This document shows positions 1,056 to 46,116 of a stretch of 64,000 nt of DNA, one piece after another. The DNA is from Patescibacteria group bacterium (GTDB lineage: Bacteria > Patescibacteriota > Patescibacteriia > UBA9570): positions 354,268 to 418,267 of the forward strand of contig JBAZWO010000001.1 in the NCBI GenBank assembly GCA_041660305.1, read 5' to 3'. Numbering within the stretch: the stretch's first letter is position 1; the number at the start of each line of letters is the position of its first letter. The position numbers were made by a program, and so were the translations under genes. The notes beneath the pieces were generated by a model. That model ran no database searches and had not been told where the DNA came from. It saw only the letters and a program-made list of their open reading frames with translations.

Positions 1056-1140
1056 GACCCTTTCCCCCTACCCCCCTTCCCTGCAAGGCAGGGGGGAATT
1101 AATTATTCCCTCCCCTGCAGGGGAGGGCTAGGGAGGGGTC
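1056..1140. repeat. GC-rich hairpin repeat locus R1
   Basis: Contains the perfect palindrome ccctcccctgcaggggaggg (1108-1127) and the hairpin ccctgc-aag-gcaggg. It fills the only sizeable gap in the T4SS-like block and is C/G-rich in an AT-rich context. Confidence 0.8.
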
Positions 1141-14800: not shown

Positions 14801-17264
14801 TCGAATTAGTGCAAGAATAAGCCCCAACCGCTATTGCACAATCACAATTCATACCAACCGTATCTTTTGCTTCACACGCGGTAGTGGCTGAATAAGTAGG
14901 ATAATCAGCACCACACACGCCGCCGGCTTGAGTGGTATCTAACTGACATGCTGTAGTAGTAGCTGTATTGTTGTATTGCAAATCAATCGGACATTCTGTA
15001 TCACCGTCCTCCACCGTACAACTTTGTTGCGCGGTACAAGTACACGTACCAACTCCATTAACTTCATTATATGAAGGGTTGTTTTTACCACAAGTATCAC
15101 TTAACGAACACACACTTAATGGTTGCCCCTCGGTGTCGTTAATTACACACTGCCAATAATCGTACACGCCGTCAGCGTTAGTATCGGTACCACGTTCTGA
15201 ACCGGCGGCTACTTGGCAAGTTTTCTGCCAGTTACAACTACAGCTGGCGCTTGGTGCCATGGAAAAATTATTAGCCGCCGCATTAGCTTCGTTACAAGCC
15301 AAATAAGTACTACCAGAACTAGCACAATCAAATTTACCGGCTTCATCGGTACTAGCACAATACCATTTACAACCAGGGTCGGTAGCACAATCACCATAAT
15401 TTAAACTATTTTTTAAATAAGATACTGTGTTGCCTTGCGTATCTGTAAATGTTTGACAAGAGGCGTGTTCTGTATCACAACTTTTTCCAGCAAATTGGTA
15501 GGATCGTTTTTCTTGTGTGCAATAGCCATAAGCCAAACAATTACCATCATCTCCCGCCGCAATACAGCCCCGATTATCCGCGCAATAATTCAACCGCCCA
15601 GCGGCCACTACTTGTTGCGTAGCTAAATTAGCGTCGTCATCAACTGGAATAATAGAAGCGTAATCCGGCCCAGGCGCTTCTCGCTCACAATAATTTTGCG
15701 GCGCCAGTAAAACCCAATCCGGATCGATTAATTTACAGTACGGCGAATACGTGGAACACTCCGTATTATTTGACATTAACAACTGACAATCACGCCCCTC
15801 TTCGGCGCCACCACAAGCATCGTAACAATTCATAATCTGTTGCAGGGTAGGAATAGCGGCCTGGTAACAAGTATTATTATTATTATTATTATTTTCTGTA
15901 CCATTAATTTTTAACCGGTACTGCGAATACTCCGCGGCCAATTGCCAACCTACCGGCACAATGCGGTATTTTTTTAATAAGATAACACCTTTTTCGGTAA
16001 ACCCAGCATCATTGCTAATGCTGTTGCCCTCTAGGGTATTATCAACAAAGCTTAGTGGCGCACCATTTAGTGAATCAACAAATTCTTTTACGGTTAACTG
16101 CTGCTGAATAGCCTGCTGCATTTTTATACCCATGGCACAATTATTTACAGTTGGCTTAACATCAGCTGTAATCGGACAAACGGCTAATTCAGCTGTAATA
16201 TCATACTCGCCGGTACTATAAAAAGTAGGGTTTTTTAAATCGGCGTACATTTCTTCAGCCGCCTGCCGGCCAGTGGAACTACCTACAGACATTAATGAGC
16301 TTAAATTATTGGCCACATCCGGCACCATGCCGGCTTTAATGCGCTCTACTAATTTAGTAATTAAAGTGGTAGCAAAAATATTAACCGCGTTTACAGCCGG
16401 TTCTTCCGTCATCTGATACAACATGCTGGTTTTAGCATCAGTAACGTTGTTTTTATAAATTTGCTCCACCACTGAACCAGGCGTAACGATGGTTTTGGAA
16501 ATTAAAGCTACCTGATCTTTAAAATCAGAATTAAGCCGTTTTAATTCAGCCTCTTTTTGCGCTTCTATTTTTTTACTTAACGTTAATTCAGACACTTCTA
16601 AAGCAATTCCTAAAGGATTAGCCGTCGGATCGAAATGAGCTTCAAAAAATTTGTTAAAATCAGGGTCAGCGTAGGCTTTTTTCCAATTCTTGCCTAATTC
16701 AGTTAAAGTACAAGCCGGTTTAAATTGATCTGGAGATTGCGCCTGACCGAAATTAGTTTCTAAACCCAATGTTAAACTAATTCTAAAATCAGCTCCCGGA
16801 TCACATAAACCAGCCGCATTTAACCCAGTGGCTGTGGCAAAGCCTTGAATAGCACTGCCAAGTGTGGCATCACCTATCTTTAATATATACTCACCACCAG
16901 ACTCTTGAAACACACCTGCTTCCTGCCCATTAAAACCATAAGCCATCCAAGTAGCTGTGTCGTAGGCCAACCGGCTTAAAAATGTGTTTAAAGCGGTACG
17001 AACGGTAACATTAGCAACTCGTTTTCCCGTAGTACTAAGGAATTCTCCAATACTACTTAGTGCTCTACTAATTGACGCACCAAAATCCGCTACTGGCAGT
17101 CCACCACCACCAACCTCTCCAAATCCACCAGGATTAGTAATCATATTAGGATTAGAAAGAGCAGCATCCGCTCCTGCTGCTAATGTTAGTTTAGGAACAC
17201 CTAATAGAAAAACAAGGCTACATATTGTTATAACTTTATAAATATGCAACCACCGTTGTTTCAT
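5883..17264 (-). CDS. giant secreted cysteine-rich surface protein (3,793 aa) with vWA and PKD-like domains
   Basis: Uninterrupted 11.4-kb ORF with an N-terminal signal-like segment (ITICSLVFLLGVPKLTLAAGADA). It has very high Cys/Asn/Thr/Gly content, a recurring GC(R/E)EY motif, a vWA MIDAS motif DTSSS and a C-terminal PKD-like fold motif. Confidence 0.9.
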   Translation of the reverse strand: MKQRWLHIYKVITICSLVFLLGVPKLTLAAGADAALSNPNMITNPGGFGEVGGGGLPVADFGASISRALSSIGEFLSTTGKRVANVTVRTALNTFLSRLAYDTATWMAYGFNGQEAGVFQESGGEYILKIGDATLGSAIQGFATATGLNAAGLCDPGADFRISLTLGLETNFGQAQSPDQFKPACTLTELGKNWKKAYADPDFNKFFEAHFDPTANPLGIALEVSELTLSKKIEAQKEAELKRLNSDFKDQVALISKTIVTPGSVVEQIYKNNVTDAKTSMLYQMTEEPAVNAVNIFATTLITKLVERIKAGMVPDVANNLSSLMSVGSSTGRQAAEEMYADLKNPTFYSTGEYDITAELAVCPITADVKPTVNNCAMGIKMQQAIQQQLTVKEFVDSLNGAPLSFVDNTLEGNSISNDAGFTEKGVILLKKYRIVPVGWQLAAEYSQYRLKINGTENNNNNNNTCYQAAIPTLQQIMNCYDACGGAEEGRDCQLLMSNNTECSTYSPYCKLIDPDWVLLAPQNYCEREAPGPDYASIIPVDDDANLATQQVVAAGRLNYCADNRGCIAAGDDGNCLAYGYCTQEKRSYQFAGKSCDTEHASCQTFTDTQGNTVSYLKNSLNYGDCATDPGCKWYCASTDEAGKFDCASSGSTYLACNEANAAANNFSMAPSASCSCNWQKTCQVAAGSERGTDTNADGVYDYWQCVINDTEGQPLSVCSLSDTCGKNNPSYNEVNGVGTCTCTAQQSCTVEDGDTECPIDLQYNNTATTTACQLDTTQAGGVCGADYPTYSATTACEAKDTVGMNCDCAIAVGAYSCTNSNGSTCIIGTTPETPAVENDTLYFNNTIKTCASEDAGCRRYLRVLPDTNLLPNAYFDYKSGGGENERTLLGFCSDTGQGCTTASNCSVGSVCQGWQQNNLTAQVFENAETDINANYVQLITEADGSAFTNTVDTGYDLSDRTFTFAYRARVTNAVDCEANYSIGSSNQVYNTTTAVYNSVWTDYSLTVSFPASNVNDSKVQVAINGQPGCALDIEAAQLAETDSFSDSYSNYGNNATYLNEQVISCSAEDVGCEMYTEAGNKTNQIPGLITNPQAIDTCVLKNADGTLGYDYGNPACSQCNGDTTIGQTDDYNVGCDFYQEAPLTNNAPLVASSSNINSLDEKSKTGAIQRTGYYCSGDNSTHCFDDSQCAGKGSCMPLLSIVPASAKQCSVAQVGCEEYTNLAAVAEGGEGLEYYNRLQQCVKTSDNNIATYYTFVGSNSGGVQVEDYLLKKSNVAGGGPCTHLDLLSQESNANCVDNADATLTIQDCGPNGNVADNMKYGVNPDCRQFIDDDDTGTVYYRYESQTVVASDNCTPLRNSLDERTYYALKASSSACGTAAVGCREYQGSNASATEDIITEDFADNSFEGWSGAVATANDSVIQGDYSLQMHGATNNTITYVIKEPALEAGKAYVLKFWAKVTQPGTATFSLIGLDNTYYFTTNGVTTDSAQANVQLDPQQAGGWQYYQLGPIILDSSASIDGDEAFVIQYGGAEAYIDTITLASSNSQYLVQDSARLCQKFEGCREYNDRANNTYYLKSFKRLCNDTAVGCEAMLDTSNSSNPFTEGFVLNNEYTQDDTIVSADKPVTLVYDTNQQCSQTAYGCTAFGLPDIDERTNEINGYSSVYLYDRPDEYATSLCEEAQLACEQYTSDYDGTAYFKNPGDKTCTLRDYKNYEGADILGWFKNRTDEDYPDYPDCPVQYNINTEAYASQPLNGVCNSNSITSTVNKIGALCNTDADCYPTDWNSGLPKPRCISSISEDVDEYLKDSITLKDIRSDFGWAGECPNEQSGCTEYVDPYSPNQAELVSNYSFEYDTHDSTGDWYSDEDVPNGYPDNWISPAILDINGDGQCDSNCTAKDYEVLMTTAADYTGEAINAGTGAAALYLMNAGIVNNGDLTKLSAENSYTLQALVRLPAASFDDVSLDTDNPAKFSIGLMYWAADVPLYVSTAQTYVTADHVTIPKESNTKQTEEWYRLEGNIGLGSTVTLPTDGCDKANSFNADDCATNKGTWKAITTIKVFVINHSTAPMYVDDVSLKQNDHYYYLDYTVDGTAEHAQNNGVNTCTEVSAGAGCVAFRDATTETQTQAQDGLACATCMLTPTSDTCRTVLDACDTNTILKVKNQRVCSEWLACETGYVYTDSNDTTQNECLNIRGCTKMDDNGNCIKWSDKPSSTELNSAADIGFVSDPGQTDGLQAAQNLTGYTKAGLIWTQERSCNTASDLPGKYCNEDINCLNPGSNNPAAKCNEPFSVMGYYPYGWMYEVANNGTNSKDLIEFSTFEDLYCVGDDANPKRACLHNATNEEDYATSQCYENSIGVLYTDQDPGNDPVSYTEDNTADPADIDATYYCPNNAAFEAWPFRAGKTTTTKTGWSGIGKSLVKVKQYDKSLDCLNDCDEIDANNVLAFTPALTSYTTSTGGTANKAFSGGAQYDLNETINPSATYALSFAGRYTSDNYVPIADNNANPSAMSVCFNYSNVATPSGDAVNSLRDCFVNGYGSADIVFAIDTSSSMTEEIMAVNKAIPALVKELDNAGVSAKFSFVSIGLEPSYDSDGNYLGYKDAIQDVVLDSTDNITDITALFKNLNCCSTSGSTPDKCIENNGVWTDYPFCIGYGVLDPWEAIIETANNEFYQADDSVEHINFRNGASRFLILVTDQNDGQLPGDDNNEVNAITAAASVPMPVYVITSDVASNDTENNIFSSGYYAGIASATGGETYTFTVNGTTSTDWVNDTDIVSDVASNVAYQSEKFQLTTDLKNYSFGPLTLTNMKKIGADNSGYVLANKEIGIITSLQFLGSDGTEIAVDNVSLLPVLEVNRDLSPIARSCRAYPDSDAKQCSYQAANGNQYRGWQGYCLELDPSNTQRCLTWWPLDVIAGEASLMKEPTSVITRSNVYHCLVAKGYEKPGFCVSNDAKNGASSAVGTGVACSDTADCNMALLGTPDPLSGAHTCFIGEHLSVNDYNNNDINGGGWYKFDSLAAGTSDSEKQKFSGAYHSRVAEWDMPNEADNLYQGNIAAIIANPLLKNIHVSEIETIEFNPGSAGDGTGAQNEFPYWGQLDGGKNSTEGYNRHALEVYDREENDQDTITGNIWLTDLYNGAIKYDADGKVDPLNQYCYAYDAAGSSSPYGIGCGVWGAFDNNKGITTNYDYYKQQYNPNNKTSTPNGYDLVYTWAYSNFNTNVAGCKKSAGSDANASAELYWEILRAEGSAGSWLTSSCVDNAVKCIMGVGDCAEDNNPWKHMGTVFDSGELYGGIKGGSIDQNRNIWDDFSYIELDTTWPGWTQMKDDLENKDVGNVFSLYIDFNDNGYVEKIYPFFYYAAEKTSDGVAGITLTYDAPMYINFYLRESCALLANTVGNDGTHHAWSNRLSGTDPYNIFAGSDGTMADTLKTSYKPFGSVAPLEGTPDTWDTFETVEKNTTTNTTTSNVYQYNTYGNQPPISYNIATGTENSKIATAGQPISCIGTCSQQWCVGNPMRYNTPCIIDDECKSEKNGKTFVGKCMGVTNSATSNIIGNKGMYANNNHLINSYQQAVAASANVAVGYLRRVFADVIGDFYRLDPVAEDQYSETGNIYLNAGDNYWVDLENGNNVFDAMSVCDTDDGSRPVENEYCGVKPVVDNIKLELNTTADGKYYQFPTGTNVKFSFDVQADVNQEPIPFVYVDYGDKTDSVTFPWEGRSATFPFTHVYECKANTLGSHCEYIIKVVAVDNWNWCSGTDNSKKSSGVNRYDSSIDGDVFEQCGSETIMPVTVWVDKKIN
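6020..6290 (-). other. PKD-like domain at the C-terminus of the giant protein
   Basis: FSFDVQADVNQEPIPFVYVDYGDKTDS...FTHVYEC...YIIKVVAVDNWNW resembles the PKD consensus (WDFGDG...HTY...Y.V.L.V.D). Confidence 0.5.
9085..9650 (-). other. von Willebrand factor A (vWA) domain inside the giant protein
   Basis: The sequence DIVFAIDTSSSMTEEI (MIDAS DxSxS, codons at 9615-9629) ... FLILVTDQNDG ... PVYVITSD follows a typical vWA beta-alpha-beta pattern. Confidence 0.7.
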
Positions 17265-18005: not shown

Positions 18006-18887
18006 TTATATCATGAATGATTCAAATTTGTCAACTAGTTCTAACCACTGATTTAAACTCAATTCTTGAGCCCTGGCTTGCCATGATATTTGGCTGTCTA
18101 AAAAAAACTGTTCGAGAATCTTTTTTTCTAATTGTTGTTGTTTAAAAGTTGCGTTTACTAAGTTTTTGATTAATAATTTACGTTTTTGGGCAAAACCGGC
18201 TTTAACCACACTAAAAAATAACTTTTCTTGGCTGGTTGGAATTAAGTCTTGTTGGTGAATAGCTGATAATTCTAAAATGGCGCTGTGTACTTTGGGTGCT
18301 GGGTAAAACGCGGCTGGTGGAATTATTTTAATTATTTTTGGCTTACAATAGGCCTGAACTGAAATAGCTAAAATGCTTAATTGCCCCGGTTTAGCAACAA
18401 TCCGCTCGGCCACCTCTTTTTGCACCAACAATACCATTTGTTTAGGATATGGTTGCTCGGTTAATAATTTTCTTAAAATTTGAGCCGTAATTTGATACGG
18501 CAAGTTAGCCACTACCGAATATGAACCATTACTTAAACCAAAATCAGCTAAATTTACTTGCAAAGCATCGTTTTGTACTATTTCTAAGTTCGGATATTGT
18601 TGCGCCACTTGTTGTAAATGTGATATTAAACGCCTATCTAACTCAATAGCAATTACCCGTTTAGCGTGTTTTACTAATTGTTCGGTTAGAATACCTAAAC
18701 CAGGGCCAATTTCTACAATGGTATCGGTTTTTTGTAGAGACGCCCCGCGGGGCGTCTCTACACCACATTTATACGTATCTATTATTGTTTTTAAAACCGT
18801 TTCATCGCACAAAAAATTTTGGCCAATGTCGGTATTTGGGCGAATATTTAATTGTTTTAGTTGTTGAAAAATATTAATCTTTGTCAT
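18006..18887 (-). CDS. rsmA: 16S rRNA (adenine1518/1519-N6)-dimethyltransferase
   Basis: Shows the GQNFL motif, the SAM-binding motif VEIGPGLGILT, and ANLPYQIT. It carries a 30-nt palindrome in-frame (see 18733-18762). Confidence 0.9.
   Translation of the reverse strand: MTKINIFQQLKQLNIRPNTDIGQNFLCDETVLKTIIDTYKCGVETPRGASLQKTDTIVEIGPGLGILTEQLVKHAKRVIAIELDRRLISHLQQVAQQYPNLEIVQNDALQVNLADFGLSNGSYSVVANLPYQITAQILRKLLTEQPYPKQMVLLVQKEVAERIVAKPGQLSILAISVQAYCKPKIIKIIPPAAFYPAPKVHSAILELSAIHQQDLIPTSQEKLFFSVVKAGFAQKRKLLIKNLVNATFKQQQLEKKILEQFFLDSQISWQARAQELSLNQWLELVDKFESFMI
18733..18762. repeat. perfect 30-nt palindrome tgtagagacgccccg/cggggcgtctctaca inside rsmA
   Basis: The 15+15 nt are perfectly self-complementary. 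The palindrome encodes ..CGVETPRGASLQ.. just before the SAM motif and shares the core GTAGAGACGC/GCGTCTCTAC with 23581-23612. Confidence 0.9.
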
Positions 18888-18896
18888 AATATTTTA

Positions 18897-18975
18897 CCCT
18901 CTAAGCTACCTCTCCCTGTCCTCCGGACATCCCTCCCCTATTAGGGGAGGGAAAGAGGGGGGGGTAAATTTCCCC
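18897..18975. repeat. GC-rich hairpin repeat locus R2
   Basis: Contains gctacctctccc followed by the hairpin ccctcccc-tatta-ggggaggg (18931-18951). It forms the C-terminal tail of the tsaC ORF. Confidence 0.8.
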
Positions 18976-19464
18976 TTGTCTATGCACAATTATTTTATTA
19001 CGTTTACATTCCACCACCGTAGACGGCTGGCATTTTTTTAATTTACCCATATTTATATAAAAAATATTTTTTATATATTTTTTATTTTTTAAATTATATA
19101 TTTCCGGCTCACCGGATTTATTAAAACTGGTAGCAATTAATGGCGCGCCGGCACGTTTGGCTAATTGTTTTGCAATAGTATTATTCGGTACACGTACCGC
19201 ATATTTTTTAGACACCACAATCGATAACGGTCCTGGCCAGTATTTTTTGGCTAATTTTTTCTGACAACTATTTAACTTAAAAAAACGCTCCGCTTGATAT
19301 AACGATGCGGCAATCAGAGTAAATTTAGGGTCTTTACGCCCCTTTATAGCCATGATTTTTTTAATGGCAGTCTTATTTCTAAAATCACAGCCAATGGCAT
19401 AAGCCGTGTCCGTTGGGTATACTACAATACCGCCTACCTCTCCCTCTTTCCCTCTCTTAAACAT
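18901..19464 (-). CDS. tsaC: L-threonylcarbamoyladenylate synthase (YrdC/Sua5 domain)
   Basis: The core GGIVVYPTDTAYAIGC...IKGRK...WPGPLSIVV is YrdC-like. The ORF-track start at 19578 and the last roughly 20 codons are read-through of repeat loci R3/R2, so I chose ATG 19464. Both termini remain uncertain. Confidence 0.75.
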   Translation of the reverse strand: MFKRGKEGEVGGIVVYPTDTAYAIGCDFRNKTAIKKIMAIKGRKDPKFTLIAASLYQAERFFKLNSCQKKLAKKYWPGPLSIVVSKKYAVRVPNNTIAKQLAKRAGAPLIATSFNKSGEPEIYNLKNKKYIKNIFYINMGKLKKCQPSTVVECKRNKIIVHRQGEIYPPLFPSPNRGGMSGGQGEVA

Positions 19465-19570
19465 CCTACCTCTATCCCCGACCCTTTCCCCTAAACAGGG
19501 GAAAGGGAGTAATGCAATTAGATTCTTCCCCCTCTCCTTAGAGGAGAGGGGGCTAGGGGGTGAGGTAGGC
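19432..19570. repeat. composite MITE-like repeat locus R3 (two hairpins, inverted ends)
   Basis: The left end gcctacctc and the right end gaggtaggc are inverted. Inside are hairpins ccctttcccct-aaaca-ggggaaaggg (19483-19508) and cccctctcc-ttag-aggagagggg. Positions 19461-19509 are identical to 23517-23565. Confidence 0.85.
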
Positions 19571-19574
19571 TGTT

Positions 19575-22004
19575 TCATTTAATTACTATACTTACCAATT
19601 TCTTTGGCACCACAATAACTTTCACTATTTCTTTTCCAGAAATATATTGTTGCACTTTATTACTCGCTAACGCCTTATCTTTAATTATCTGTTCATTATC
19701 CACTTCACTCGCTGATAATTCAATTTTATCACGTACTTTTCCGTTCACTTGTATAACCATTAAATAGCTTACATTCACTAATTTGGTTTCGTCATATTTT
19801 GGCCAATCTTGAAACAAATTTTCAGACCAATGTTTTTGTTCTCGTAACTCTTCAGCCAAATGTGGTGCGAACGGGTAAATTAACTGTAAATATATTTTAA
19901 GTTGCGCTTCTTGTAATTTCGGTTGTTCTGCATAGCTATTTAGACAAATCATTAATTGCGAAATAGCTGTGTTAAATTTAAATTGTTCAATATCTTCAGT
20001 AACTTTTTTTATTGTTTGATGTAAAGCCAGATCAACAGTATTACTTGCATTATCTGTTTTTACCGATTGATAAACATTCCAAATCTTTTCTAAAAACCGT
20101 CTCATCCCTTTTATGCTCTGCGGATCCCACGGTTTTGTTTCTTCAAACGGGCCCATGAACATTTCGTATAAGCGCATGGTATCGGCGCCAAAATCTTGCA
20201 CAATGGCATCGGGATTCACCACATTGCCTCTAGATTTGCTCATTTTCTGATGATCTTCGCCTAAAATCATGCCCTGATTACGCAGTGCTTTGAACGGCTC
20301 TCTGCCCACTGCTTTTGGAATAAACCCAAAATCTTGTAAGGCTTTATGAAAAAATCGGGCATACAGTAAATGCAGTACTGCGTGCTCGGCACCGCCTACA
20401 TACATATCTACCGGCAACCACTGTTTTAATTTTTCCGGATCAGCAAATTGTTTAGCATTATGCGGATCGCAGTAACGTAAATAATACCAAGATGAACAGA
20501 CAAACGTATCCATGGTATCAACTTCAAAATGCCAGCCGGCTCCATATAATTTCTCAGCCAAATCTTTATATGATTTAGAACTGCCTAACGGCGAGGTGCC
20601 TTTTGGCCTGTAATCAACATCTGTGGGTAACAATAACGGCAAATGCTCTTCTTTAATCGGATGAGCATTACCCTGTGGATCATAAACAATAGGTATAGGA
20701 GCACCCCAGTAGCGCTGGCGAGAAATTAACCAGTCACGAATTTTATAATTAGTTACTCTTTTACCCCAACCTTGTTTTTCTAAATAATCCATGATTTTTT
20801 CAGTAGCTACGTGAATATCTAATCCATTTAAAAAATCACTATTTATCATAGTACCTTGCTCTTCTTGTACCTGTTCCCGCTTACTAATAGTAGCTGTATC
20901 TCCATCCTTACCAACTACAACTCTGATCACTTCGATGCCCATAGCTTGAGCGAATTCAAAATCACGTACGTCATGACCTGGTACACCAACCACAGCTCCT
21001 GTGCCAACAGAGGCTAATACAAAATCAGAAATATATACAGGCAATCTTTTATTATTCAGTTTATTAATAACATAACTACCAGTAAACACACCCGTTTTCT
21101 TTTTGCCTTCTGAGATGCGCTCTAACTCAGTTTTTTTTACTGTTTGTTCAATATAGCTTGCCGTGGCTGTATAATTAGGAAATAATTTTAAGTTAGTTTG
21201 AACAAATTTACTATCTGGTGCTAAAACCACAAAAGTTGCGCCAAAGTTAGTGTCCGGTCTAGTAGTAAACACTGTGATATGTTGATCAGAATTTTCTAAA
21301 TCATAATCAATATTAATACCAACACTTTTTCCTATCCAATTTCTCTGCATTAATTTAATCGGCTCTGGCCAATCTATGCTATCTAAATCAGCTAATAATT
21401 TATCTGCGTAATCTGTGATTCTAAAAAACCATTGTTCAAGATCTTTCTGCATAACTGGATTTTTACAGCGCTCACACGCGCCATTCACTACTTGTTCATT
21501 CGCTAATACCGTTTGGCAACTAGCACACCAATTAACATGCGCTTTTTTTCTATACGCTAAACCGTGTTGATACATTTGCAAAAATATCCATTGCGTCCAA
21601 CAATAATATTCAGGCGAAGACGTATCTATTTCTCTAGACCAATCATAACTAAATCCCAATGCTTTAATTTGTCGTGTAAAATTTTTAATGTTGTTATGCG
21701 TAGAAGTATCAGGATCTACACCGGTTTTAATGGCGTAATTCTCGGCCGGCAAACCAAAGGCGTCCCAGCCCATGGGATGTAATACATTAAAACCACCCAT
21801 GCGTTTATAACGGGAAAAAATATCGGTAGCGGTGTAGCCTTCCGGGTGGCCAACATGCAAGCCATTAGCTGAAGGATAAGGAAACATGTCTAAACAATAA
21901 AATTTGGGTTTAGTAGAATTATCAGCGGCCTGATAATAATTGTTGTCTTGCCAATATTTTTGCCATTTTGGCTCAATAATATTTGGCTGATATTTATTAT
22001 CCAT
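19575..22004 (-). CDS. leuS: leucyl-tRNA synthetase
   Basis: 809 aa with the class I HIGH-type motif (PYPSANGLHVGH) and KMSKS (QKMSKSRGN). Collinear LeuS similarity is evident throughout. Confidence 0.95.
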   Translation of the reverse strand: MDNKYQPNIIEPKWQKYWQDNNYYQAADNSTKPKFYCLDMFPYPSANGLHVGHPEGYTATDIFSRYKRMGGFNVLHPMGWDAFGLPAENYAIKTGVDPDTSTHNNIKNFTRQIKALGFSYDWSREIDTSSPEYYCWTQWIFLQMYQHGLAYRKKAHVNWCASCQTVLANEQVVNGACERCKNPVMQKDLEQWFFRITDYADKLLADLDSIDWPEPIKLMQRNWIGKSVGINIDYDLENSDQHITVFTTRPDTNFGATFVVLAPDSKFVQTNLKLFPNYTATASYIEQTVKKTELERISEGKKKTGVFTGSYVINKLNNKRLPVYISDFVLASVGTGAVVGVPGHDVRDFEFAQAMGIEVIRVVVGKDGDTATISKREQVQEEQGTMINSDFLNGLDIHVATEKIMDYLEKQGWGKRVTNYKIRDWLISRQRYWGAPIPIVYDPQGNAHPIKEEHLPLLLPTDVDYRPKGTSPLGSSKSYKDLAEKLYGAGWHFEVDTMDTFVCSSWYYLRYCDPHNAKQFADPEKLKQWLPVDMYVGGAEHAVLHLLYARFFHKALQDFGFIPKAVGREPFKALRNQGMILGEDHQKMSKSRGNVVNPDAIVQDFGADTMRLYEMFMGPFEETKPWDPQSIKGMRRFLEKIWNVYQSVKTDNASNTVDLALHQTIKKVTEDIEQFKFNTAISQLMICLNSYAEQPKLQEAQLKIYLQLIYPFAPHLAEELREQKHWSENLFQDWPKYDETKLVNVSYLMVIQVNGKVRDKIELSASEVDNEQIIKDKALASNKVQQYISGKEIVKVIVVPKKLVSIVIK

Positions 22005-22011
22005 AATCGAT

Positions 22012-22040
22012 ATTGTAATGGTTTATGCATATTCTCACAA
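22012..22040 (-). promoter_or_regulatory. sigma70-like promoter of leuS positioned for a leaderless mRNA
   Basis: On the minus strand: TTGTGA (22040-22035), 17 nt, TACAAT (22017-22012), 7 nt, then ATG (22004). Confidence 0.45.
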
Positions 22041-22075
22041 GGATATGATAATATCATATTTTTTGTTCTGGCACA

Positions 22076-22104
22076 TTGACTGAACAATGAAAAAATGATA
22101 GATT
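22076..22104 (+). promoter_or_regulatory. sigma70-like promoter of the LysM-M23 gene positioned for a leaderless mRNA
   Basis: TTGACT (22076-22081), 17 nt, TAGATT (22099-22104), 7 nt, then ATG (22112). Confidence 0.5.
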
Positions 22105-22111
22105 GGACAAC

Positions 22112-23497
22112 ATGTCTTTAAGATTAAAACAACTAAGCATATCCACTCTAGTGTTATTACTGAAAGCATTAAAAACATTATTTTATACGTTGTGGTGGAT
22201 CATAAAAATAGTATTTTCTCCAATTATTATTTTATTAAAAATGGCCATAAAACCAGTGTTACTATATGGTTATCACTGGTATTTAAAATTTTATTCTTTA
22301 TTAAAACGTTCCGCGTTTGTACAAAATCGCATTTTATTTTTATTTAGCCATAAATATTTTATTCATGTAGTAATTGTGTTAATGGCTATTTTTGTTACCG
22401 GTACAAATATTAAGGCTAAAGAGCTTAATAACACTAGTGATTTTGGCAAACAATCGGCTTTATACAAAATTGTACAAGAATCCAATGGAGAAATGAACGA
22501 TGTAGTTATTGTGGAAAAAGGTTTAATCCAAAATAATACCAATAGTCAACGTTATCTAGACACTTCCGGGAGCATTGTTAGTAATGTTAGTAAAATTGAT
22601 CCAGATTCAGAAGCAGCTAGTTTAGGCGATAAAAAAACTGGTATTACTACAGAAACCGCCACCATGGCCACTAATACGCAAATTCAAACCAAAACAGGCC
22701 ACCGAGCTGAAGCGGTAGAATACACTGTAAAAAATGGTGAAAATATTGGCATTATTGCTAATCGCTTTGGGATTTCTAGTAATAGTATCTTATGGGCCAA
22801 TGATTTATCAGATAACGCTGTAATTAAACCTGGCGATACCATAAAGATTCCACCGGCCTCTGGCTACACTTACCAAGTAGCTCAAGATGATACGCTAGAA
22901 AAAATCATCGCCAAATATTCTGGTGATATGAATGAAACCATTAAAATTAATGGCATTGGCGAGGATCATATAATTCCAGTTGGCTCAAAAATTATTATTG
23001 TGGGAGGCAAACCACCGCCACCGCCTACGCCAATTATTAATAATAGTTATTTAGCTAATTCTTCTTCGTCTAATCGATCTTCGTCTAGCGATCCTTATGT
23101 AAATCGCAATGCCGCGGCTAAAATAACCGGCGGTAAGTTAAATTGGCCGATTGGCTGCCAATCGCGCATGACTACTTATTGGGGTCACGCCGGTAACGCT
23201 CGTGATTTTCCTTGCCCAATTGGCACGCCTATTTATGCGGCTACAGAAGGGGTTTTTTATGTGCGCTTTACCGGACAAATCGGCCATGGTTACGGTAATT
23301 GTGGTGATGTAGTTGGTCCAAACGGTATTACTACCCGTTATGCACATATGTCTTACTTCAATGTTTCCAACGGCCAACACGTTAGTCGTGGTCAAGTACT
23401 GGGTTTTGTGGGCATGACCGGCCGAACCACTGGCCCTCATTTACATTTTGAAGTACACATTAACGGCCGCGCCTACGATCCGATTCAGTTTTATTAA
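22112..23497 (+). CDS. LysM-domain M23 family metallopeptidase (peptidoglycan endopeptidase)
   Basis: Has N-terminal TM helices and two LysM-like repeats (YTVKNGENIGIIANRFGIS; YQVAQDDTLEKIIAKYSG). A PPPPPTP linker precedes the M23 motifs HAGNARDF..G and GMTGRTTGPHLHFEV. I prefer ATG 22112 over the track's TTG 22103 because of the promoter geometry. Confidence 0.85.
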   Translation: MSLRLKQLSISTLVLLLKALKTLFYTLWWIIKIVFSPIIILLKMAIKPVLLYGYHWYLKFYSLLKRSAFVQNRILFLFSHKYFIHVVIVLMAIFVTGTNIKAKELNNTSDFGKQSALYKIVQESNGEMNDVVIVEKGLIQNNTNSQRYLDTSGSIVSNVSKIDPDSEAASLGDKKTGITTETATMATNTQIQTKTGHRAEAVEYTVKNGENIGIIANRFGISSNSILWANDLSDNAVIKPGDTIKIPPASGYTYQVAQDDTLEKIIAKYSGDMNETIKINGIGEDHIIPVGSKIIIVGGKPPPPPTPIINNSYLANSSSSNRSSSSDPYVNRNAAAKITGGKLNWPIGCQSRMTTYWGHAGNARDFPCPIGTPIYAATEGVFYVRFTGQIGHGYGNCGDVVGPNGITTRYAHMSYFNVSNGQHVSRGQVLGFVGMTGRTTGPHLHFEVHINGRAYDPIQFY

Positions 23498-23498
23498 A

Positions 23499-23566
23499 TA
23501 CCTACCTCACCTCCTAACATCCTACCTCTATCCCCGACCCTTTCCCCTAAACAGGGGAAAGGGAGA
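23499..23566. repeat. GC-rich hairpin repeat locus R4
   Basis: Contains cctacctcac.. followed by acatcctacctctatccccgaccctttcccctaaacaggggaaagggag, which is identical over 49 nt to part of R3. Confidence 0.9.
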
Positions 23567-23580
23567 ATTTTATAAAAAAA

Positions 23581-23612
23581 TAGTAGAGACGCATTGCAAT
23601 GCGTCTCTACTA
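23581..23612. terminator. perfect 32-nt palindrome, probable bidirectional terminator between convergent genes
   Basis: tagtagagacgcattg/caatgcgtctctacta is preceded by an A-run and followed by a T-run. It sits between the M23 gene (+) and the receiver gene (-). Confidence 0.7.
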
Positions 23613-23624
23613 TTTTAGATTTAT

Positions 23625-24011
23625 TTACTGATCCAAAACCTTTTTAATCTTCTCTACAATTTCTCCAGTAGTAAAGTTCGCTTTCACCAGATAATCCACT
23701 GCGCCTAACTGTAAGCCATGTTCAATTTTACTTTCTTGGCCAAAATTAGATAAAATAATTACTGGAATATTTTTAATAGCTGTATTAGCATGTTTTTTTA
23801 ATTTGCCTAATACTTCAAACCCGTCCATACCAGGCAACATAATGTCTAACAAAATAATGTCTGGCTTATATTCTTCAGCTTTTTTATAGCCAGTTTCACC
23901 ATCACCGGCTAAGCCTATATCAAAACCTTCTTTGTCTAATTTGGTTGATATTAATTCACTTAAAAACTTATCATCTTCGATAATAAGTACCTTGGCTTTT
24001 TGTCCTCCCAT
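23625..24011 (-). CDS. single-domain response regulator (CheY-like receiver)
   Basis: 128 aa with VLIIEDD, DIILLDIMLPGMDG and a conserved K in the VDYLVKA region. Confidence 0.85.
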   Translation of the reverse strand: MGGQKAKVLIIEDDKFLSELISTKLDKEGFDIGLAGDGETGYKKAEEYKPDIILLDIMLPGMDGFEVLGKLKKHANTAIKNIPVIILSNFGQESKIEHGLQLGAVDYLVKANFTTGEIVEKIKKVLDQ

Positions 24012-24073
24012 ACTTGGTTATTAAATAAAAATAAGCTATGCTGACAGTATACTAAATAGTTAAATATTAGTAA

Positions 24074-24793
24074 ATGGGCATATTATATTGCGTCAGTACC
24101 CCAATTGGCAACCTAGCCGATATTACCATACGAGCTTTGGATATTTTAAAAACCGTAAATACTATTTTGTGCGAAGATACCCGCACTACCAAAACACTCT
24201 TAAAACACTATCAAATTAATACTCCTACTGAATCTTATCACCAAAATTCTACCGCTCAACAAGCCGCACAGATTATTACTAGATTACAATCTGGAGAAAA
24301 CCTAGCCTTAGTAAGTGATGCCGGCACCCCGGGTATTTCCGATCCTGGTAGCTTATTAATTCAGCAGGTACTAGCCGCTGGTATTACTGTTACCCCTATT
24401 CCAGGAGCCACGGCTTTAATTTGCGCTCTACAAGCCGCTGGTGTAGATATCAGTTCCTTTGTATATTTAGGTTTTCTCCCGCACAAAAAAGGCCGGCAAA
24501 CGTTATTTAACTATATTGCTCAAGAAACACGTACCGTAGTATTTTATGAATCCCCACACCGCATTTTAAAAACATTAACTGCTTTAAAAAACTGTAAGCG
24601 TAATATTGTATTAGCCCGTGAACTCACCAAAATTCACGAAGAATTCATCCGCGGCACCGCCGAACAAGTATACGTTGAACTTTTCAAGCGCCCAAAAATT
24701 TTAGGCGAGTTTGTGGTGATAATACATACCTCTCCCCTAGCCCCTCTCCTAATAGGAGAGGGGAATGATGAAATATATTTAGTACCTCGTTAA
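24074..24793 (+). CDS. rsmI: 16S rRNA (cytidine1402-2'-O)-methyltransferase
   Basis: The sequence LYCVSTPIGNLADITIRAL..L..V..ILCEDTR...SDAGTPGISDPG is the tetrapyrrole-methylase-fold RsmI pattern. The last roughly 20 codons run into repeat R5, so the true C-terminus is uncertain. Confidence 0.85.
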   Translation: MGILYCVSTPIGNLADITIRALDILKTVNTILCEDTRTTKTLLKHYQINTPTESYHQNSTAQQAAQIITRLQSGENLALVSDAGTPGISDPGSLLIQQVLAAGITVTPIPGATALICALQAAGVDISSFVYLGFLPHKKGRQTLFNYIAQETRTVVFYESPHRILKTLTALKNCKRNIVLARELTKIHEEFIRGTAEQVYVELFKRPKILGEFVVIIHTSPLAPLLIGEGNDEIYLVPR

Positions 24794-25124
24794 TATTGTT
24801 TATCACCTGATTATTACTAAATCTCAATACTGTATATCCTAATTGCAATAAATACAAATCTCTAGCTTGATCACGCTCTATCTGTTTTTCATGAATCAAG
24901 CCATCAACTTCAATAATAAGTTTTGCTTTTCTACAATAAAAATCTGCAATATATCGCCCAATAGGATGTTGCCTCTTAAATTTTGCGTTATTAATTTGCT
25001 TCCTACGTAATTGTTGCCATAAAATATATTCTGCTGTAGTTTGTTTTTCACGTAATTTTTTTGCAATGTAATGTAATTTAGTTTGAAATTGTATTGCTTG
25101 ATTATTTTTTGATGTTACTAGCAT
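24684..25124 (-). CDS. DUF559 (Vsr-like endonuclease fold) protein
   Basis: LWQQLRRKQINNAKFKRQHPIGRYIADFYCRKAKLIIEVDGLIHE...D..RD..L...GY.VLRF.N..V is a classic DUF559 signature. The tail HHSPLLLGEGLGERY... is read-through of repeat R5. Confidence 0.75.
   Translation of the reverse strand: MLVTSKNNQAIQFQTKLHYIAKKLREKQTTAEYILWQQLRRKQINNAKFKRQHPIGRYIADFYCRKAKLIIEVDGLIHEKQIERDQARDLYLLQLGYTVLRFSNNQVINNINEVLNIFHHSPLLLGEGLGERYVLSPQTRLKFLGA
24727..24764. repeat. GC-rich hairpin repeat locus R5 (left inverted end of the DUF559 unit)
   Basis: tacctctcccctagcccctctccta (24727-24751) lies next to the hairpin cccctctcct-aat-aggagagggg. Confidence 0.85.
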
Positions 25125-25140
25125 AAAATATTTTATAATT

Positions 25141-25216
25141 CTCCCTTTCCCCTATTTAGGGGAAAGGGTTGGGGATAGAGGTAGAATTTTTAGGAGAGGG
25201 GCTGGGGGAGAGGTAG
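25141..25216. repeat. GC-rich hairpin repeat locus R6 (right inverted end of the DUF559 unit)
   Basis: Hairpin ccctttcccct-attta-ggggaaaggg is followed by ttggggatagaggtag. Then taggagaggggctgggggagaggta (25191-25215) is the reverse complement of the R5 25-mer with one mismatch. Confidence 0.85.
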
Positions 25217-32680: not shown

Positions 32681-33607
32681 ATGTCCACACTTGATAAATT
32701 AATTACTGATTTTTTGGAATATTTAGAGATTGAAAAAAATCGGTCGCAAAAAACGATTCGTAATTATAGTTTTTATTTACATCGGTTTGCTAGCATGACC
32801 AAACTATCCAACCCTAATGCCATCACCAGTGCTGTGGTACGTAATTATCGTTTACAATTAAATCGTTTACCCAATTTGCGCTTTAACACTAATTTAAAAA
32901 AGAAAACGCAAAATTATCATCTCATTGCTTTGCGTGCGTTCTTAAAATATCTAGCCAAGCGCGATATTGTTTCACTAGCTCCAGACAAAATTGAACTCGC
33001 CAAGCAAGAAGACCGGCAAATTGAATATTTAATGGGCTCGGAATTGGAAGAATTATTGGCCGCACCATTAAAATCATCCGCGTCCATTATTTCCTATCGC
33101 GACAAAGCCATTCTAGAATTATTATTCTCTACCGGTTTACGTGTATCTGAATTAGCTAATCTAAAAATTGGAGACGTTAATTTAAAACGAGAAGAATTTT
33201 CAGTACGCGGTAAAGGTAGTAAAATTAGGTTGGTATTTTTATCGGAACAAGCCCGCTACTGGCTAAAAGAATATCTATCCAAACGCCAAGATACGGCGCC
33301 GTATTTATTTGTAGCCCATGATCGCGCCAGTATTGCCCGTGATAAAAACGAACAGCCAAAACCGTTAACATCGCGCTCCATTGAGCGCCTGATTCAACAT
33401 TATGCTAAACAAGTAGGTATTATGAAACGTATTACACCACACACGTTACGCCATAGTTATGCTACAGATTTATTAAGTAACGGTGCTGATATTCGTTCCG
33501 TCCAGACTATGTTAGGCCATTCTTCTATTACCACTACGCAAATCTATACGCACGTAACCAATCAACAATTAAAAGAAACCTATAAAAAATTTCACCGGGT
33601 TCACTAA
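32681..33607 (+). CDS. tyrosine recombinase, XerC/XerD family
   Basis: SAM-like N-domain, then R...HTLRHSYATDLL..GADIRSVQTMLGHSSITTTQIYTHV (R-H-R-Y catalytic pattern). TACAAT lies 7 nt upstream of the ATG. Confidence 0.85.
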   Translation: MSTLDKLITDFLEYLEIEKNRSQKTIRNYSFYLHRFASMTKLSNPNAITSAVVRNYRLQLNRLPNLRFNTNLKKKTQNYHLIALRAFLKYLAKRDIVSLAPDKIELAKQEDRQIEYLMGSELEELLAAPLKSSASIISYRDKAILELLFSTGLRVSELANLKIGDVNLKREEFSVRGKGSKIRLVFLSEQARYWLKEYLSKRQDTAPYLFVAHDRASIARDKNEQPKPLTSRSIERLIQHYAKQVGIMKRITPHTLRHSYATDLLSNGADIRSVQTMLGHSSITTTQIYTHVTNQQLKETYKKFHRVH

Positions 33608-38704: not shown

Positions 38705-39121
38705 CTACTTCTTCAACTGCCGATAAATGCCAGCTAATTGTTCATCGAACGTAATCAATTCAAACCCAAAGGTTAAAGCTAAATATAAATTAGAATAATC
38801 TGTTAACCCTAATGGTTTAGTTAGTTTTTGTTGTTCGATAAATTTAATCGTACGACGAATAAATTCACTATTCATATCAATTTGATCTATTAACTTATGT
38901 TTGCTAATAAACCAATAAAATTTCAACGCCTCCGTATGAGACATTTTATTTGTCAGTAATGTAAACACCTCTTGCACAATAAAATTAGATACAACTACTC
39001 CTCGATCTGTCTTTTCTAACGTTCTAAATATCTTATTAGCTTTTTCATGTAGCGTATCCTTGCTGTTATGCAAACCTATCCACACATTTGAATCTATTAA
39101 TGCGTATCTATTTAATTCCAT
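38705..39121 (-). CDS. PIN-domain toxin (VapC-like)
   Basis: ALIDSNVWI (first acidic residue), ..VQEV.., ..TDY.. 138 aa, overlapping the upstream antitoxin gene by 14 nt. Confidence 0.7.
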   Translation of the reverse strand: MELNRYALIDSNVWIGLHNSKDTLHEKANKIFRTLEKTDRGVVVSNFIVQEVFTLLTNKMSHTEALKFYWFISKHKLIDQIDMNSEFIRRTIKFIEQQKLTKPLGLTDYSNLYLALTFGFELITFDEQLAGIYRQLKK

Positions 39122-41927: not shown

Positions 41928-42011
41928 GCCACACCTCTCACAAACAGAAGGCTCATCATTCATTGCCACCAGAATATCCCGGCGGAACAACAAATCCGCG
42001 CGCACCCTTCC

Positions 42012-42148
42012 TATGCACCCGGGAAATAAATCCTACCTTCCATCCCCAACCCTTCCCTCCTATAAAGAGGGAAGGGAGAAATTTCTCCTCCTCCCTTTAT
42101 AGGGGAGGAGGTTGGGAGGTGGGGTAGACATTAATTCCCGAGTGCATA
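42012..42148. repeat. composite MITE-like repeat locus R7 with an extra outer inverted repeat
   Basis: Outer IR tatgcacccgggaa / ttcccgagtgcata (13/14). Inner ends are tcctaccttccatccccaac / gttgggaggtggggtaga. Two hairpins are present: cccttccctc-ctataaa-gagggaaggg and ctcctcctccc-tttata-ggggaggag. Confidence 0.85.
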
Positions 42149-42303
42149 TAGAAACTGTTTGCAAATTTTTAAAGAACCACTTAAAGAACGAAAAACCAGA
42201 CTAACAAACTCTCTCTCTCTTCAATATATTGTTTTACGATGTATTTGACATAAAAAATTTTATGATTGAATTAAGTAACTATTTTTGTTATGCTGTTTTA
42301 ACT

Positions 42304-42523: not shown

Positions 42524-42566
42524 CTCCCCTTCTCCTAGTTAGGAGAAGGGGTTGGGGGTTGAGGTA
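42524..42566. repeat. GC-rich hairpin repeat locus R8
   Basis: ccccttctcc-tagtt-aggagaagggg followed by ttgggggttgaggta. Confidence 0.8.
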
Positions 42567-43423: not shown

Positions 43424-43467
43424 CTCCCTTTCCCCTTTTTAGGGGAAAGGGCCGGGGATAGAGGTAG
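43424..43467. repeat. GC-rich hairpin repeat locus R9
   Basis: ccctttcccct-ttttt-aggggaaaggg followed by ccggggatagaggtag. Confidence 0.85.
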
Positions 43468-45882: not shown

Positions 45883-46116
45883 ATGCCTGATATTAATTTA
45901 ACCAATAAAAAAAGAAAGCAATATTTCAAAGAAATCTTTGTTAATCTTATTTATGACAACATGGCTATGGAGAATGAAACTGTTTTTTCCAAAAAAAGTA
46001 TTGCTGAACGTTATAAATTACAAATTAATAACTTAATTAAGGAAGGCGCTCATAATAAAATTGTTATTCCGAACTCATACTATGTCAAAGACAAAGCCGT
46101 CTTATCGCGAAACTAA
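45883..46116 (+). CDS. hypothetical 77-aa protein upstream of and overlapping the Fic gene start
   Basis: ORF with the promoter above. Its position suggests a Fic partner, but no S/TxxxE(G/N) inhibitory motif was recognised. Confidence 0.4.
   Translation: MPDINLTNKKRKQYFKEIFVNLIYDNMAMENETVFSKKSIAERYKLQINNLIKEGAHNKIVIPNSYYVKDKAVLSRN

Follow-up and report, generated by a model that had tools for sequence, protein, structure and literature searches.

Intrastrand triplex-motif repeats at gene junctions of a Patescibacteria genome and their association with a DUF559 endonuclease gene

We analyzed a family of short GC-rich hairpin repeats in a 64,000-nucleotide (nt) stretch of DNA from a Patescibacteria group bacterium (GenBank assembly GCA_041660305.1, contig JBAZWO010000001.1, positions 354,268 to 418,267), hereafter called the window, in which an initial annotation had placed nine loci of the repeat (R1 to R9; Table 1). 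We classify the repeats, which are real, as a new sequence family within a structural class already known, that of the intrastrand triplex motifs represented by BoxC, also called the potential intrastrand triplex (PIT). BoxC/PIT/TM repeats have been known in Escherichia coli since the 1990s and are abundant in many bacteria. The explanation that we favor, and hold to be likely, is a lineage-specific family of such motifs that has been inserted at gene junctions and whose parent was probably a unit carrying a gene for a protein with the DUF559 domain.

All nine loci were found where the initial annotation had put them, and they comprise 12 full units, seven on the plus strand and five on the minus strand. 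A scan for the three-domain layout described below recovered every copy and gave no match in 40 shuffles. Perfect hairpins with a stem of at least 8 bp and a pyrimidine-only 5' arm numbered 12 in the window compared to none in each of 30 dinucleotide shuffles, and the same scan found no hairpins of the reverse polarity, with the purine arm first, in the window. Eleven of these 12 hairpins belong to the family (the hairpin at 45497 does not), and the window units consist of 11 perfect stems of 8-11 bp and one imperfect stem, always with the pyrimidine arm at the 5' side. The proposal of a dispersed family with conserved hairpins is borne out. Because the window has a G+C content of only 38%, the C- and G-rich units are conspicuous in it. 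As had been noted, all loci lie at gene boundaries, and six of the nine fall within 18.9-25.2 kb. R3 and R7, which had been described as composite, are MITE-like (resembling miniature inverted-repeat transposable elements) inverted doublets of two units, and R1 is likewise an inverted two-unit doublet. Three half copies without a purine arm, at R3, R4, and R6, are each located just outside a full unit. A duplicate that had been given as 49 nt proved real but 50 nt long (19460-19509 and 23516-23565, 100% identical). In addition, 19434-19509 and 25141-25216 are 88% complementary over 76 nt, and 24727-24752 and 25190-25215 are 96% complementary over 26 nt.

Beyond these loci, the three-domain scan identified one further unit just outside the left edge of the window, none at 44-64 kb, and none in the 9.4 kb that follow the window end. 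Ten units were found by the same scan in 31.7 kb of four contigs (L007-L010) of the Joint Genome Institute (JGI) from metagenome Ga0172379, which also contains the window organism, so that copies do occur in other gene contexts. A scan of a genome collection with the commonest hairpin gave four single matches in other phyla, three of them with the three-domain layout; the fourth, from a metagenome-assembled genome (MAG) labeled 'Klebsiella', was rejected as a plain long palindrome. The Rfam covariance models yielded only one tRNA at the gathering score and nothing credible at E <= 5 in 18.8-25.3 kb. The suggestion that the repeats are specially devoid of stop codons did not hold, as one to four of the six frames are open, about as many as in length-matched random windows.

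Read along the G-rich strand, the units all consist, in this order, of a pyrimidine arm of 8-11 nt, a loop of 3-7 nt rich in A/T, a purine arm, a 3-nt loop, and a second purine-rich tract that ends in ..GGT-AG. This tract repeats the purine arm in reversed order without complementing it, with G opposite G and A or T opposite A. The second loop is TCG, TTG, CCG, or CTA in the window units (AAG in R2), and TTA, CTG, AAG, and CAA are found in the wider set. All 11 perfect window units have exactly 3 nt here. Of 19 copies taken from the window, from L007-L010, and from chance finds in Turneriella and a Fibrobacteres MAG, 17 have a 3-nt and two a 2-nt second loop, and a minority variant has a 13-nt mini-hairpin in its place. 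Across the 19 copies, the purine-motif triplex rule is obeyed at 189 of 197 positions. The tract base opposite an arm A is A (22 times) or T (16 times) and never G, and opposite an arm G it is G (89 times) or A (4 times). Swapping the tracts among 13 distinct arm types reduced validity from 0.965 to 0.78 (standard deviation 0.03), and none of 20,000 permutations reached the observed value; the tract covaries with the purine arm. A single genome contains at least seven arm types, and the three domains change together in a compensatory manner. A mirror relation cannot arise from Watson-Crick pairing; the rule is that of an antiparallel purine-motif triple helix (G.G-C, A.A-T, and T.A-T).

These data change the meaning of the flank (c)tacctc..cccc. 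Rather than a terminal tag, it is the third-strand domain, mirroring the purine arm and covarying with it, and this places the family with the BoxC/PIT intrastrand triplex motifs, a class not considered in the initial annotation. Two other readings of the flank were tried and rejected. The pyrimidine motif, that is the RNA-capable triplex or H-DNA mirror reading of the C-rich strand, gave a poorer fit (82% vs 96%), because the tract frequently places T against an arm A of the G strand, and on the C-rich strand this T reads as a mismatched A. Under the second reading, the flank would be a direct repeat forming Watson-Crick pairs with the purine arm. Compared by hand, this reading equaled the mirror reading in two subfamilies and fell short of it in three, and the permutation test favors the mirror. 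Nearest-neighbor folding, which models the hairpin only, showed the hairpins to be stable as DNA (-11 to -13 kcal/mol, z-scores of -2.6 to -5.1) and folded the doublets with their outer tracts paired. We infer that triplexes may form in vivo.

The history of the loci was assessed by comparison with relatives, whose LeuRS proteins are 64-73% identical to that of the window (ComM of relative L016 is 62% identical). The closest non-identical LeuRS has 73% identity, and Kerfeldbacteria LeuRS about 62%. The relatives keep the gene orders M23 - LeuRS - TsaC - KsgA - giant protein and ComM - RsmI - response regulator - M23. Their LeuRS/TsaC and TsaC/KsgA gene pairs overlap by ATGA or are 2 nt apart, and at these junctions the window has the 135-nt R3 and the approximately 70-nt R2. 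The stop codons of ComM and RsmI are 2 nt apart in L016 vs 495 nt in the window. The spacer between the response regulator and M23 genes contains only a U-tract terminator in the relative; the window has a terminator of the same kind (23577-23616) plus R4. Overall, relatives with the same gene order have repeat-free, overlapping, or near-empty junctions at five testable loci, and the three-domain scan found no unit in about 73 kb of their DNA compared to 12 in the 64-kb window, so that presence of units does vary between relatives. The case that would have refuted the initial annotation, with no further copies and no variation in presence, does not apply. Because the five testable junctions of the relatives are repeat-free, with overlapping genes, we concluded that the units are lineage-specific insertions. 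At the strain level, other assemblies of the window organism are identical wherever they overlap, with breakpoints at the repeats. Intergenic DNA is almost nil in the window genome, and the position of units near stop codons therefore needs no special cause.

One relative (L015, ComM 70% identical) has a PDDEXK_3 small nuclease gene and a PALP gene, and no DUF559 gene, at its ComM/RsmI junction (11613-11930), which looks like a landing site for small nuclease genes. A single hairpin of the family type follows the response regulator gene of L015 (14350-14373).

Several units reach into coding sequence. TsaC has 225 amino acids (aa) in the window compared to 179-187 aa in relatives, and RsmI has 239 aa compared to 219 aa in L016. 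In RsmI, the element starts at the last ancestral codon and adds SPLAPLLIGEGN and eight more residues; in TsaC, the C-terminal ..GEIY is followed by a tail from R2 (Table 1); and in the DUF559 protein the last ~30 aa derive partly from R5 and partly from the sequence antisense to rsmI that follows it. The initial annotation had called such tails artefactual. The repeats do run into the ends of the open reading frames (ORFs), but because the element occupies the ancestral stop position in RsmI, TsaC, and DUF559, the extended ORFs are what the DNA encodes. The units displaced stop codons and thereby extended the TsaC, RsmI, and DUF559 ORFs. The head of TsaC, also called an artefact, is not dismissible, since it starts in frame at a conserved junction: the ancestral LeuRS/TsaC ATGA is intact at 19575-19578, and R3 lies in frame behind ATGAAACAG. 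An internal ATG at 19462-19464, with GAGGTAGG before it, offers an alternative start, and the assignment of the head is ambiguous.

One gene of the window is enclosed by units, a fact that the initial annotation had missed. Its product belongs to DUF559, which is a very widespread domain with, to our knowledge, no assigned function, and we know of no DUF559 protein with a known cleavage specificity. The protein matches Pfam PF04480 with 131 bits (cut-off 20.6) and has all 15 invariant columns of 44 homologues. The DUF559 profile matches PDB 3HRL (E = 6e-36) and, more weakly, PDB 3R3P (E = 4e-6), deposited as a 'mobile intron protein'; this fits a homing-type nuclease. Relatives do not have the gene at their ComM/RsmI junction. 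In the window, it is bracketed by R6 upstream, consisting of a half copy and a full unit, and by R5 over its 3' end, and the third-strand tracts of the bracketing units point outward and form a 26-nt, 96% inverted repeat. The whole of R3 (19434-19570) is collinear with both ends of this DUF559 unit, agreeing with them in order and in the two subfamilies present (80 nt at ~88% and ~50 nt at ~80%), and has an 18-nt spacer in place of the gene. R3 can be called MITE-like because it is collinear with the two ends of a gene-carrying unit and the gene is missing. The two subfamilies flanking the gene are, by our count, the two most numerous among the dispersed copies. A second DUF559 paralog of the same genome (L023, 57% identical) is likewise bracketed, here by units of another subfamily, with its TAG stop in the first loop of the downstream unit. 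Both DUF559 genes recognized in the window genome are bracketed by inverted units.

The arrangement extends to other organisms. DUF559 genes of Kerfeldbacteria (L024/L025) and of another organism (L026) each overlap a unit at the 3' end, and no other full unit is present in their loci. A pyrimidine/purine hairpin is located about 108 nt upstream of the ATG in L024/L025; no hairpin was found in the 119 nt of upstream sequence present in L026. By eye, approximately 18 of 120 DUF559 homologues carry C-terminal tails that are Pro-rich and then Gly/Glu/Arg-rich, as the units encode. In 52 DUF559 loci of the viral collection IMG/VR, the density of perfect six-triplet units is 4.7 per 10 kb up to 150 nt from the gene compared to 0.85 per 10 kb elsewhere, and in seven loci the unit lies 31-43 nt past the DUF559 domain match. 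Adjacent units are present in seven or eight of 25 DUF559 clusters (60% identity). One GC-rich cluster has them in all 18 members under a relaxed scan, and in the members read the gene lies between doublets of the mini-hairpin variant.

In E. coli, BoxC, PIT, and TM_ECO denote the same repeat (Hoyne/Maher 2000, as cited in Holder et al., 2015, NAR 43:10126; PMC4666352). The TGA stop of the K-12 DUF559 gene ycjD falls within the loop of a degenerate unit; 167 nt downstream, the same strand carries a strict TM_ECO. As there are about 23 TM_ECO in 4.6 Mb, we estimate the probability of this adjacency by chance at ~0.002. The gene occurs in 3378 of 5426 complete E. coli genomes; in strains without it, the region is rearranged and a TetR/efflux operon abuts fabI, so that these strains offer no clean empty site for comparison. 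Adjacency of DUF559 genes and repeats is directly observed; a literature search found no paper linking DUF559 with repeats. A stronger version, in which DUF559 neighbors every unit, was rejected, as none is found near the units in L003-L010.

A few further observations concern DUF559 genes and their surroundings. The K-12 sequence that separates ycjD from the intact BoxC, in the ycjD-fabI region (L027 11270-11400), contains a partial duplicate of the ycjD 3' end (ETVLENIRQGLNR...) followed by a degenerate motif (GAAAGGGTTAGGGGCTG). In other phyla, many DUF559 homologues (P0278, P0288, P0292, P0304, P0305, P0353, and others) have recurrent non-triplex tails (..NIQKLNASSNDGV, ..QKQNTPRRAESKSPL), which suggests that other repeat families also abut DUF559 3' ends. 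The JGI labels some tail-bearing DUF559 proteins 'HisF/cyclase'. The IMG/VR contig with the closest DUF559 of the viral collection (51% identical) carries three short motifs in tandem (CCCCCCTTTAGAAAAGGGGGGTTGGGGGGATTTG) immediately before the gene and another three 1.2 kb downstream (L028 52-165 and 1723-1839).

In the explanation that we favor, each ~40-nt unit consists of a homopyrimidine/homopurine hairpin of 9-11 bp, a 3-nt turn, and a G-rich tract able to return antiparallel onto the purine arm, where it would give the three triplets named above (class II purine motif, on the G strand). Units exist as singlets, half copies, and inverted doublets with the third-strand tracts outward. Their insertion filled junctions that are overlapping or near-empty in relatives, and units arriving on a stop or start codon were absorbed into the ORF. 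The parent element was probably a ~490-bp unit with two inverted motifs around a gene for a DUF559 (Vsr/EDxHD-like) endonuclease; doublets such as R3 would be its internally deleted, non-autonomous derivatives, and singlets further remnants. We propose that, by analogy with RAYT and the REP/REPIN sequences, the nuclease would recognize or nick the folded motif in transiently single-stranded DNA, leading to copying, and DUF559 proteins may in this way mobilize the repeats. A bolder extension, which we regard as possible but doubtful, is that DUF559 proteins are the cognate nucleases of BoxC/PIT-type repeats across bacteria, that motif - DUF559 - motif is a minimal selfish element, and that singlets and doublets, including E. 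coli BoxC, are its non-autonomous derivatives.

A number of results weigh against this explanation. Neither a target-site duplication nor a conserved target was seen at the nine loci, which have no flanking direct repeats, and a domain search of the window ORFs found no transposase. The TsaC N-terminus is not a clean insertion, as about 11 ancestral codons are missing, and slippage or repair-associated copying is a possible route of insertion. The IMG/VR enrichment counts are not phylogenetically independent, 17-18 of the 25 DUF559 clusters have no adjacent unit, and the relaxed motif gives a background of 3.4 per 10 kb in GC-rich DNA. The third-strand tract points outward from the gene in Patescibacteria and inward in the GC-rich cluster. 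A search for ycjD 3' fragments travelling with BoxC found none, with one or two places per genome compared to a median of 16 for BoxC. Finally, dimethyl sulfate footprinting detected no stable TM_ECO triplex in vivo, and TM_ECO has neither promoter nor terminator activity (Holder et al., 2015).

Four other explanations were weighed against the proposal. One of them accepts the units as true triplex motifs and insertions and takes the DUF559 gene to be unrelated, gene and units both collecting in tolerant junctions and the units spreading by slippage, template switching, or gene conversion. It accounts for the different small nuclease gene (PDDEXK_3), with no unit, at the ComM/RsmI junction of L015, for the majority of DUF559 clusters, in which no unit is adjacent, for the half-plus-full arrangements, which resemble slippage products, and for the description of TM_ECO loci as unstable (Holder et al., 2015). 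We nevertheless consider it unlikely. In four Patescibacteria loci, the DUF559 stop codon is covered by a unit of the same orientation, and three of these loci have a unit or pyrimidine/purine hairpin upstream as well; a rough estimate from junction counts puts chance placement in the four at ~2e-6. Full units in L024/L025 and L026 occur solely at the DUF559 gene, the seven IMG/VR loci repeat the narrow spacing past the domain match, and one of the few TM_ECO of K-12 adjoins ycjD, the sole annotated DUF559 gene in the 22-kb stretch examined. The units could also act as RNA elements, either terminators without a U-tract, as the initial annotation had suggested, or hairpins that stabilize 3' ends, with spread and DUF559 adjacency secondary; this we judge quite unlikely. 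All units lie at gene ends, often 3-8 nt past a stop codon, their hairpins are stable, one unit of L007 stands between fusA and tuf, and pyrimidine-motif triplexes can form in RNA (Holder et al., 2015). However, since the genome has hardly any intergenic DNA, units would be near stop codons in any case, and only one of the 12 units passes, marginally, a scan for a hairpin plus T-run. Canonical U-tract terminators are in use in this genome, including the one next to R4. The LeuRS-TsaC-KsgA series that received R2 and R3 is translationally coupled in relatives by ATGA overlaps, and termination within it would be harmful. The units also occur in both orientations relative to transcription, the choice of A or T in the third tract fits the DNA-only purine motif better than the pyrimidine motif, relatives do without the units, and PIT is inactive as terminator or promoter in E. 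coli (Holder et al., 2015).

A classical REP/REPIN, in which a GTAG-tagged palindrome is mobilized by a RAYT (an IS200/IS605-like Y1 transposase) encoded elsewhere in the genome, appears very unlikely. The units do end in GGTAG (CTACC on the other strand) and are short palindromes at gene ends with inverted doublets, as are REPs (Di Nocera, 2013; PMC3733652). Against this, their GTAG closes the third tract on its 3' side, at a distance of 14 nt from the hairpin, and has a polarity opposite to that of REPs; copies in other phyla have no such tag; and a REP model leaves unexplained why the tract separating tag and hairpin mirrors the purine arm. No window ORF, the part of the genome searched, has a Y1_Tnp match, and the bracketed gene is DUF559 rather than RAYT. 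It is extremely improbable that the heads and tails which the repeats encode are, rather than insertions, functional segments conserved in TsaC, RsmI, and other proteins. The ORFs are open through the elements and the TsaC head starts at the conserved ATGA junction, yet the orthologs in four relatives are without any such segment, and the same nucleotide sequence recurs at non-coding positions and on both strands. The ortholog alignments also refute an ancestral origin of these protein segments. The insertion of triplex motifs probably derived from a DUF559-carrying unit remains the explanation that we favor.

With respect to known repeats, the family is closest to TM_ECO, for which the pattern CCCTCNCCC N3-6 GGGNGAGGG N3 GGGNGAGGG, second loops TTA or CCG, both orientations, frequent inverted pairs, and copy numbers that differ strongly between close relatives have been described (Holder et al., 2015). 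TM_ECO formed a triplex in vitro, was linked to local genomic instability, and in a survey never had a mobility gene nearby (Holder et al., 2015). The family shares the C-rich arm, 3-6-nt loop, G-rich arm, 3-nt loop, and mirroring second G-rich tract, the second loops TTA and CCG, the inverted pairs and both orientations, the length of ~37-45 nt, tens of copies, a patchy presence between related genomes, and no transposase nearby. The strict TM_ECO consensus has no match in the window and does match E. coli K-12 beside ycjD. Unlike TM_ECO, the window units have more varied arms, a third tract ending in GGTAG, a mini-hairpin variant of the second loop, and an AT-rich Patescibacteria host; they also invade ORF ends, whereas TM_ECO is described as always intergenic (Holder et al., 2015). 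The bracketed DUF559 gene was recognized in the window, and the same adjacency at E. coli ycjD goes without mention in that study.

Likeness to other systems is partial. REP, BIME, and REPIN sequences with their RAYT partners have reportedly been described by Nunvar in 2010 and by Bertels and Rainey in 2011. REPs and BIMEs are short palindromic repeats at gene ends, with inverted doublets and a GTAG at one end of the REP palindrome (Di Nocera, 2013). The window family resembles them in its short GC-rich palindromes at gene ends, in inverted doublets as the likely mobile form, in a single small nuclease-type gene between two inverted repeats, and in the different subfamilies around different paralogs. 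It differs in that the gene is DUF559 (PD-(D/E)XK/Vsr-like) and that of REP a Y1 HUH transposase, in the polarity and position of the tag, and in the third-strand mirror domain, which has no REP counterpart. Like MITEs derived from insertion sequences, R3 has terminal inverted repeats, is shorter than 150 nt, and shares both termini with a longer gene-carrying unit without its internal gene; unlike MITEs, the family has no target-site duplication and no DDE or other recognized transposase, and its 'autonomous' unit carries only a nuclease of ~120 aa. Rickettsia palindromic elements are also palindromes inserted in frame that add peptide to conserved proteins, but internally rather than at the extreme gene ends, and a GTAGAGACGC hairpin inside ksgA (see below) is the closer analogue. 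The DUF559 protein is similar to EDxHD/Vsr-like homing endonucleases, among which we take I-Bth0305I to belong, in its match to 3R3P, its E-x-D-G-x-x-H core, its small size, and its free-standing, patchy distribution; unlike them, it has no intron or intein context and is flanked by triplex motifs.

The features of the nine loci are listed in Table 1. Several are close to the ends of genes: the R1 right unit ends 4 nt before the stop of a 592-aa ORF, R4 sits between the M23 peptidase stop and the canonical terminator, and R5 lies between the convergent RsmI and DUF559 genes, both of which read through it. The R6 hairpin end (GGGAG after the purine arm) is 16 nt upstream of the DUF559 ATG. The last nine codons and the TAG stop of a 260-aa ORF fall within R8, and the R9 element (GGTAG) ends at 43467, a few nt ahead of the stop of the CCA-adding enzyme at 43474. 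The sequence of the R1 left unit is also present in L017/L019, and the mini-hairpin variant of R2 in L008, L009, Turneriella, and GC-rich IMG/VR loci.

Table 1. Repeat units and the DUF559 gene in the window; parts are given on the G-rich strand as pyrimidine arm / loop / purine arm / second loop / third-strand tract
Feature	Coordinates	Strand	Description
R1 left unit	1056..1097	-	imperfect hairpin; G-rich strand CCCCCCTGCC TTGCA GGGAAGGGGGG TAG GGGGGAAAGGG TCT
R1 right unit	1108..1138	+	CCCTCCCC / TGCA / GGGGAGGG / CTA / GGGAGGGG; 8/8 triplets valid
R2 second third-strand tract	18907..18929	-	via mini-hairpin (TGTCCGGAGGACA + GGGAGAGGTAG on minus strand)
R2 unit	18930..18965	+	TCCCTCCCCT / ATT / AGGGGAGGGA / AAG / AGGGGGGGGT; 9/10 triplets; encodes 20-aa TsaC tail PPLFPSPNRGGMSGGQGEVA
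R3 half copy	19436..19467	+	third-strand complement, pyrimidine arm, and loop; no purine arm
R3 left unit	19468..19507	-	CCCTTTCCCCT / GTTT / AGGGGAAAGGG / TCG / GGGATAGAGGT; 10/11 triplets
R3 right unit	19528..19566	+	CCCCCTCTCCT / TAG / AGGAGAGGGGG / CTA / GGGGGTGAGGT; 11/11 triplets
R4	23501..23563	-	short half copy 23501-23521 and unit 23524-23563; 10/11 triplets
R5 unit	24728..24763	-	CCCCTCTCCT / ATT / AGGAGAGGGG / CTA / GGGGAGAGGT; 10/10 triplets; right end of DUF559 unit
DUF559 ORF	24684..25124	-	146 aa; Vsr/EDxHD-like endonuclease; domain at aa 17-116
R6 unit	25143..25182	+	CCCTTTCCCCT / ATTT / AGGGGAAAGGG / TTG / GGGATAGAGGT; 10/11 triplets; left end of DUF559 unit
R6 half copy	25186..25216	+	TTAGGAGAGGGGCTGGGGGAGAGGTAG; ends 5 nt from ComM stop codon
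R7 left unit	42037..42076	-	CCCTTCCCTC / TTTATAG / GAGGGAAGGG / TTG / GGGATGGAAG; 9/10 triplets
R7 right unit	42087..42123	+	CCTCCTCCC / TTTATAG / GGGAGGAGG / TTG / GGAGGTGGG; 9/9 triplets
R8 unit	42526..42565	+	CCCCTTCTCCT / AGTT / AGGAGAAGGGG / TTG / GGGGTTGAGGT; 11/11 triplets
R9 unit	43426..43465	+	CCCTTTCCCCT / TTTT / AGGGGAAAGGG / CCG / GGGATAGAGGT; 10/11 triplets

Other repeats were observed in the same DNA. The R7 doublet is embedded in a longer repeat of ~200 nt (41985-42230) that has a separate inverted repeat on its outside (TATGCACCCGGGAA / TTCCCGAGTGCATA) and a tail rich in A, made of AAAGAAC repeats, and an approximately 80% identical copy lies in an unrelated context at L009 6395-6640. 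A second, unrelated hairpin family, TGTAGAGACGCCC cgcg GGGCGTCTCTACA, is represented at 18733-18762 inside ksgA (18006-18887, minus strand), where it is in frame and adds nine residues (CGVETPRGA) absent from four orthologues. A hairpin of the same kind occurs in frame inside TsaC of a relative (L014 4978-5013; VETLSYASL). The terminator beside R4 is canonical, bidirectional, and intrinsic (AGTAGAGACGC attgcaa GCGTCTCTACT with A and T runs) and shares the GTAGAGACGC core with the ksgA hairpin.

The gene content of the window includes a giant 3793-aa ORF (5883-17264, minus strand) for which Pfam gives just a weak CBM_4_9 match and whose position is kept in relatives (2166 to >4077 aa), and the adjoining 978-aa and 592-aa ORFs have no Pfam match. 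Type-IV-secretion-like genes are represented by PrgI at 599-1045 and by TraC-like and VirB4-like genes just outside the window at its start. An Xer-like tyrosine recombinase gene at 32681-33607 (Phage_integrase, 160 bits) is the sole recombinase-type gene in the window and has no repeat nearby. The repeat-free half of the window contains a cluster of toxin-antitoxin or defense type, with PIN at 38705-39121, a Fic/DOC fragment at 46061-46441, and AbiEii with its upstream partner ORF at 47174-48455. Contigs of the same organism from other assemblies (L001 and L002) begin or end at R4 (23587-23591) and inside R6 (25184); the repeats break short-read assemblies.

For BoxC/PIT/TM repeats, we know of no function, origin, or means of spread. 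The window presents repeats of this kind in a reduced, AT-rich Patescibacteria genome, where they stand out sharply, and the orthologous empty sites show the units to be insertions that remodel protein termini. On the practical side, the units fragment metagenome assemblies and mislead gene callers on protein ends. The DUF559 gene bracketed by inverted motifs, together with a deletion derivative, is a testable candidate for the missing partner of the repeats, and the arrangement recurs in other phyla and at E. coli ycjD. If the proposal is correct, the ends of the element would be recognized as folded hairpin or triplex DNA, and the system would be a second one of the REP/RAYT type, mechanistically distinct from the first; it would also provide a function for DUF559 and an origin for BoxC. 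The architecture turns an old descriptive puzzle into an experiment that is feasible in E. coli K-12.

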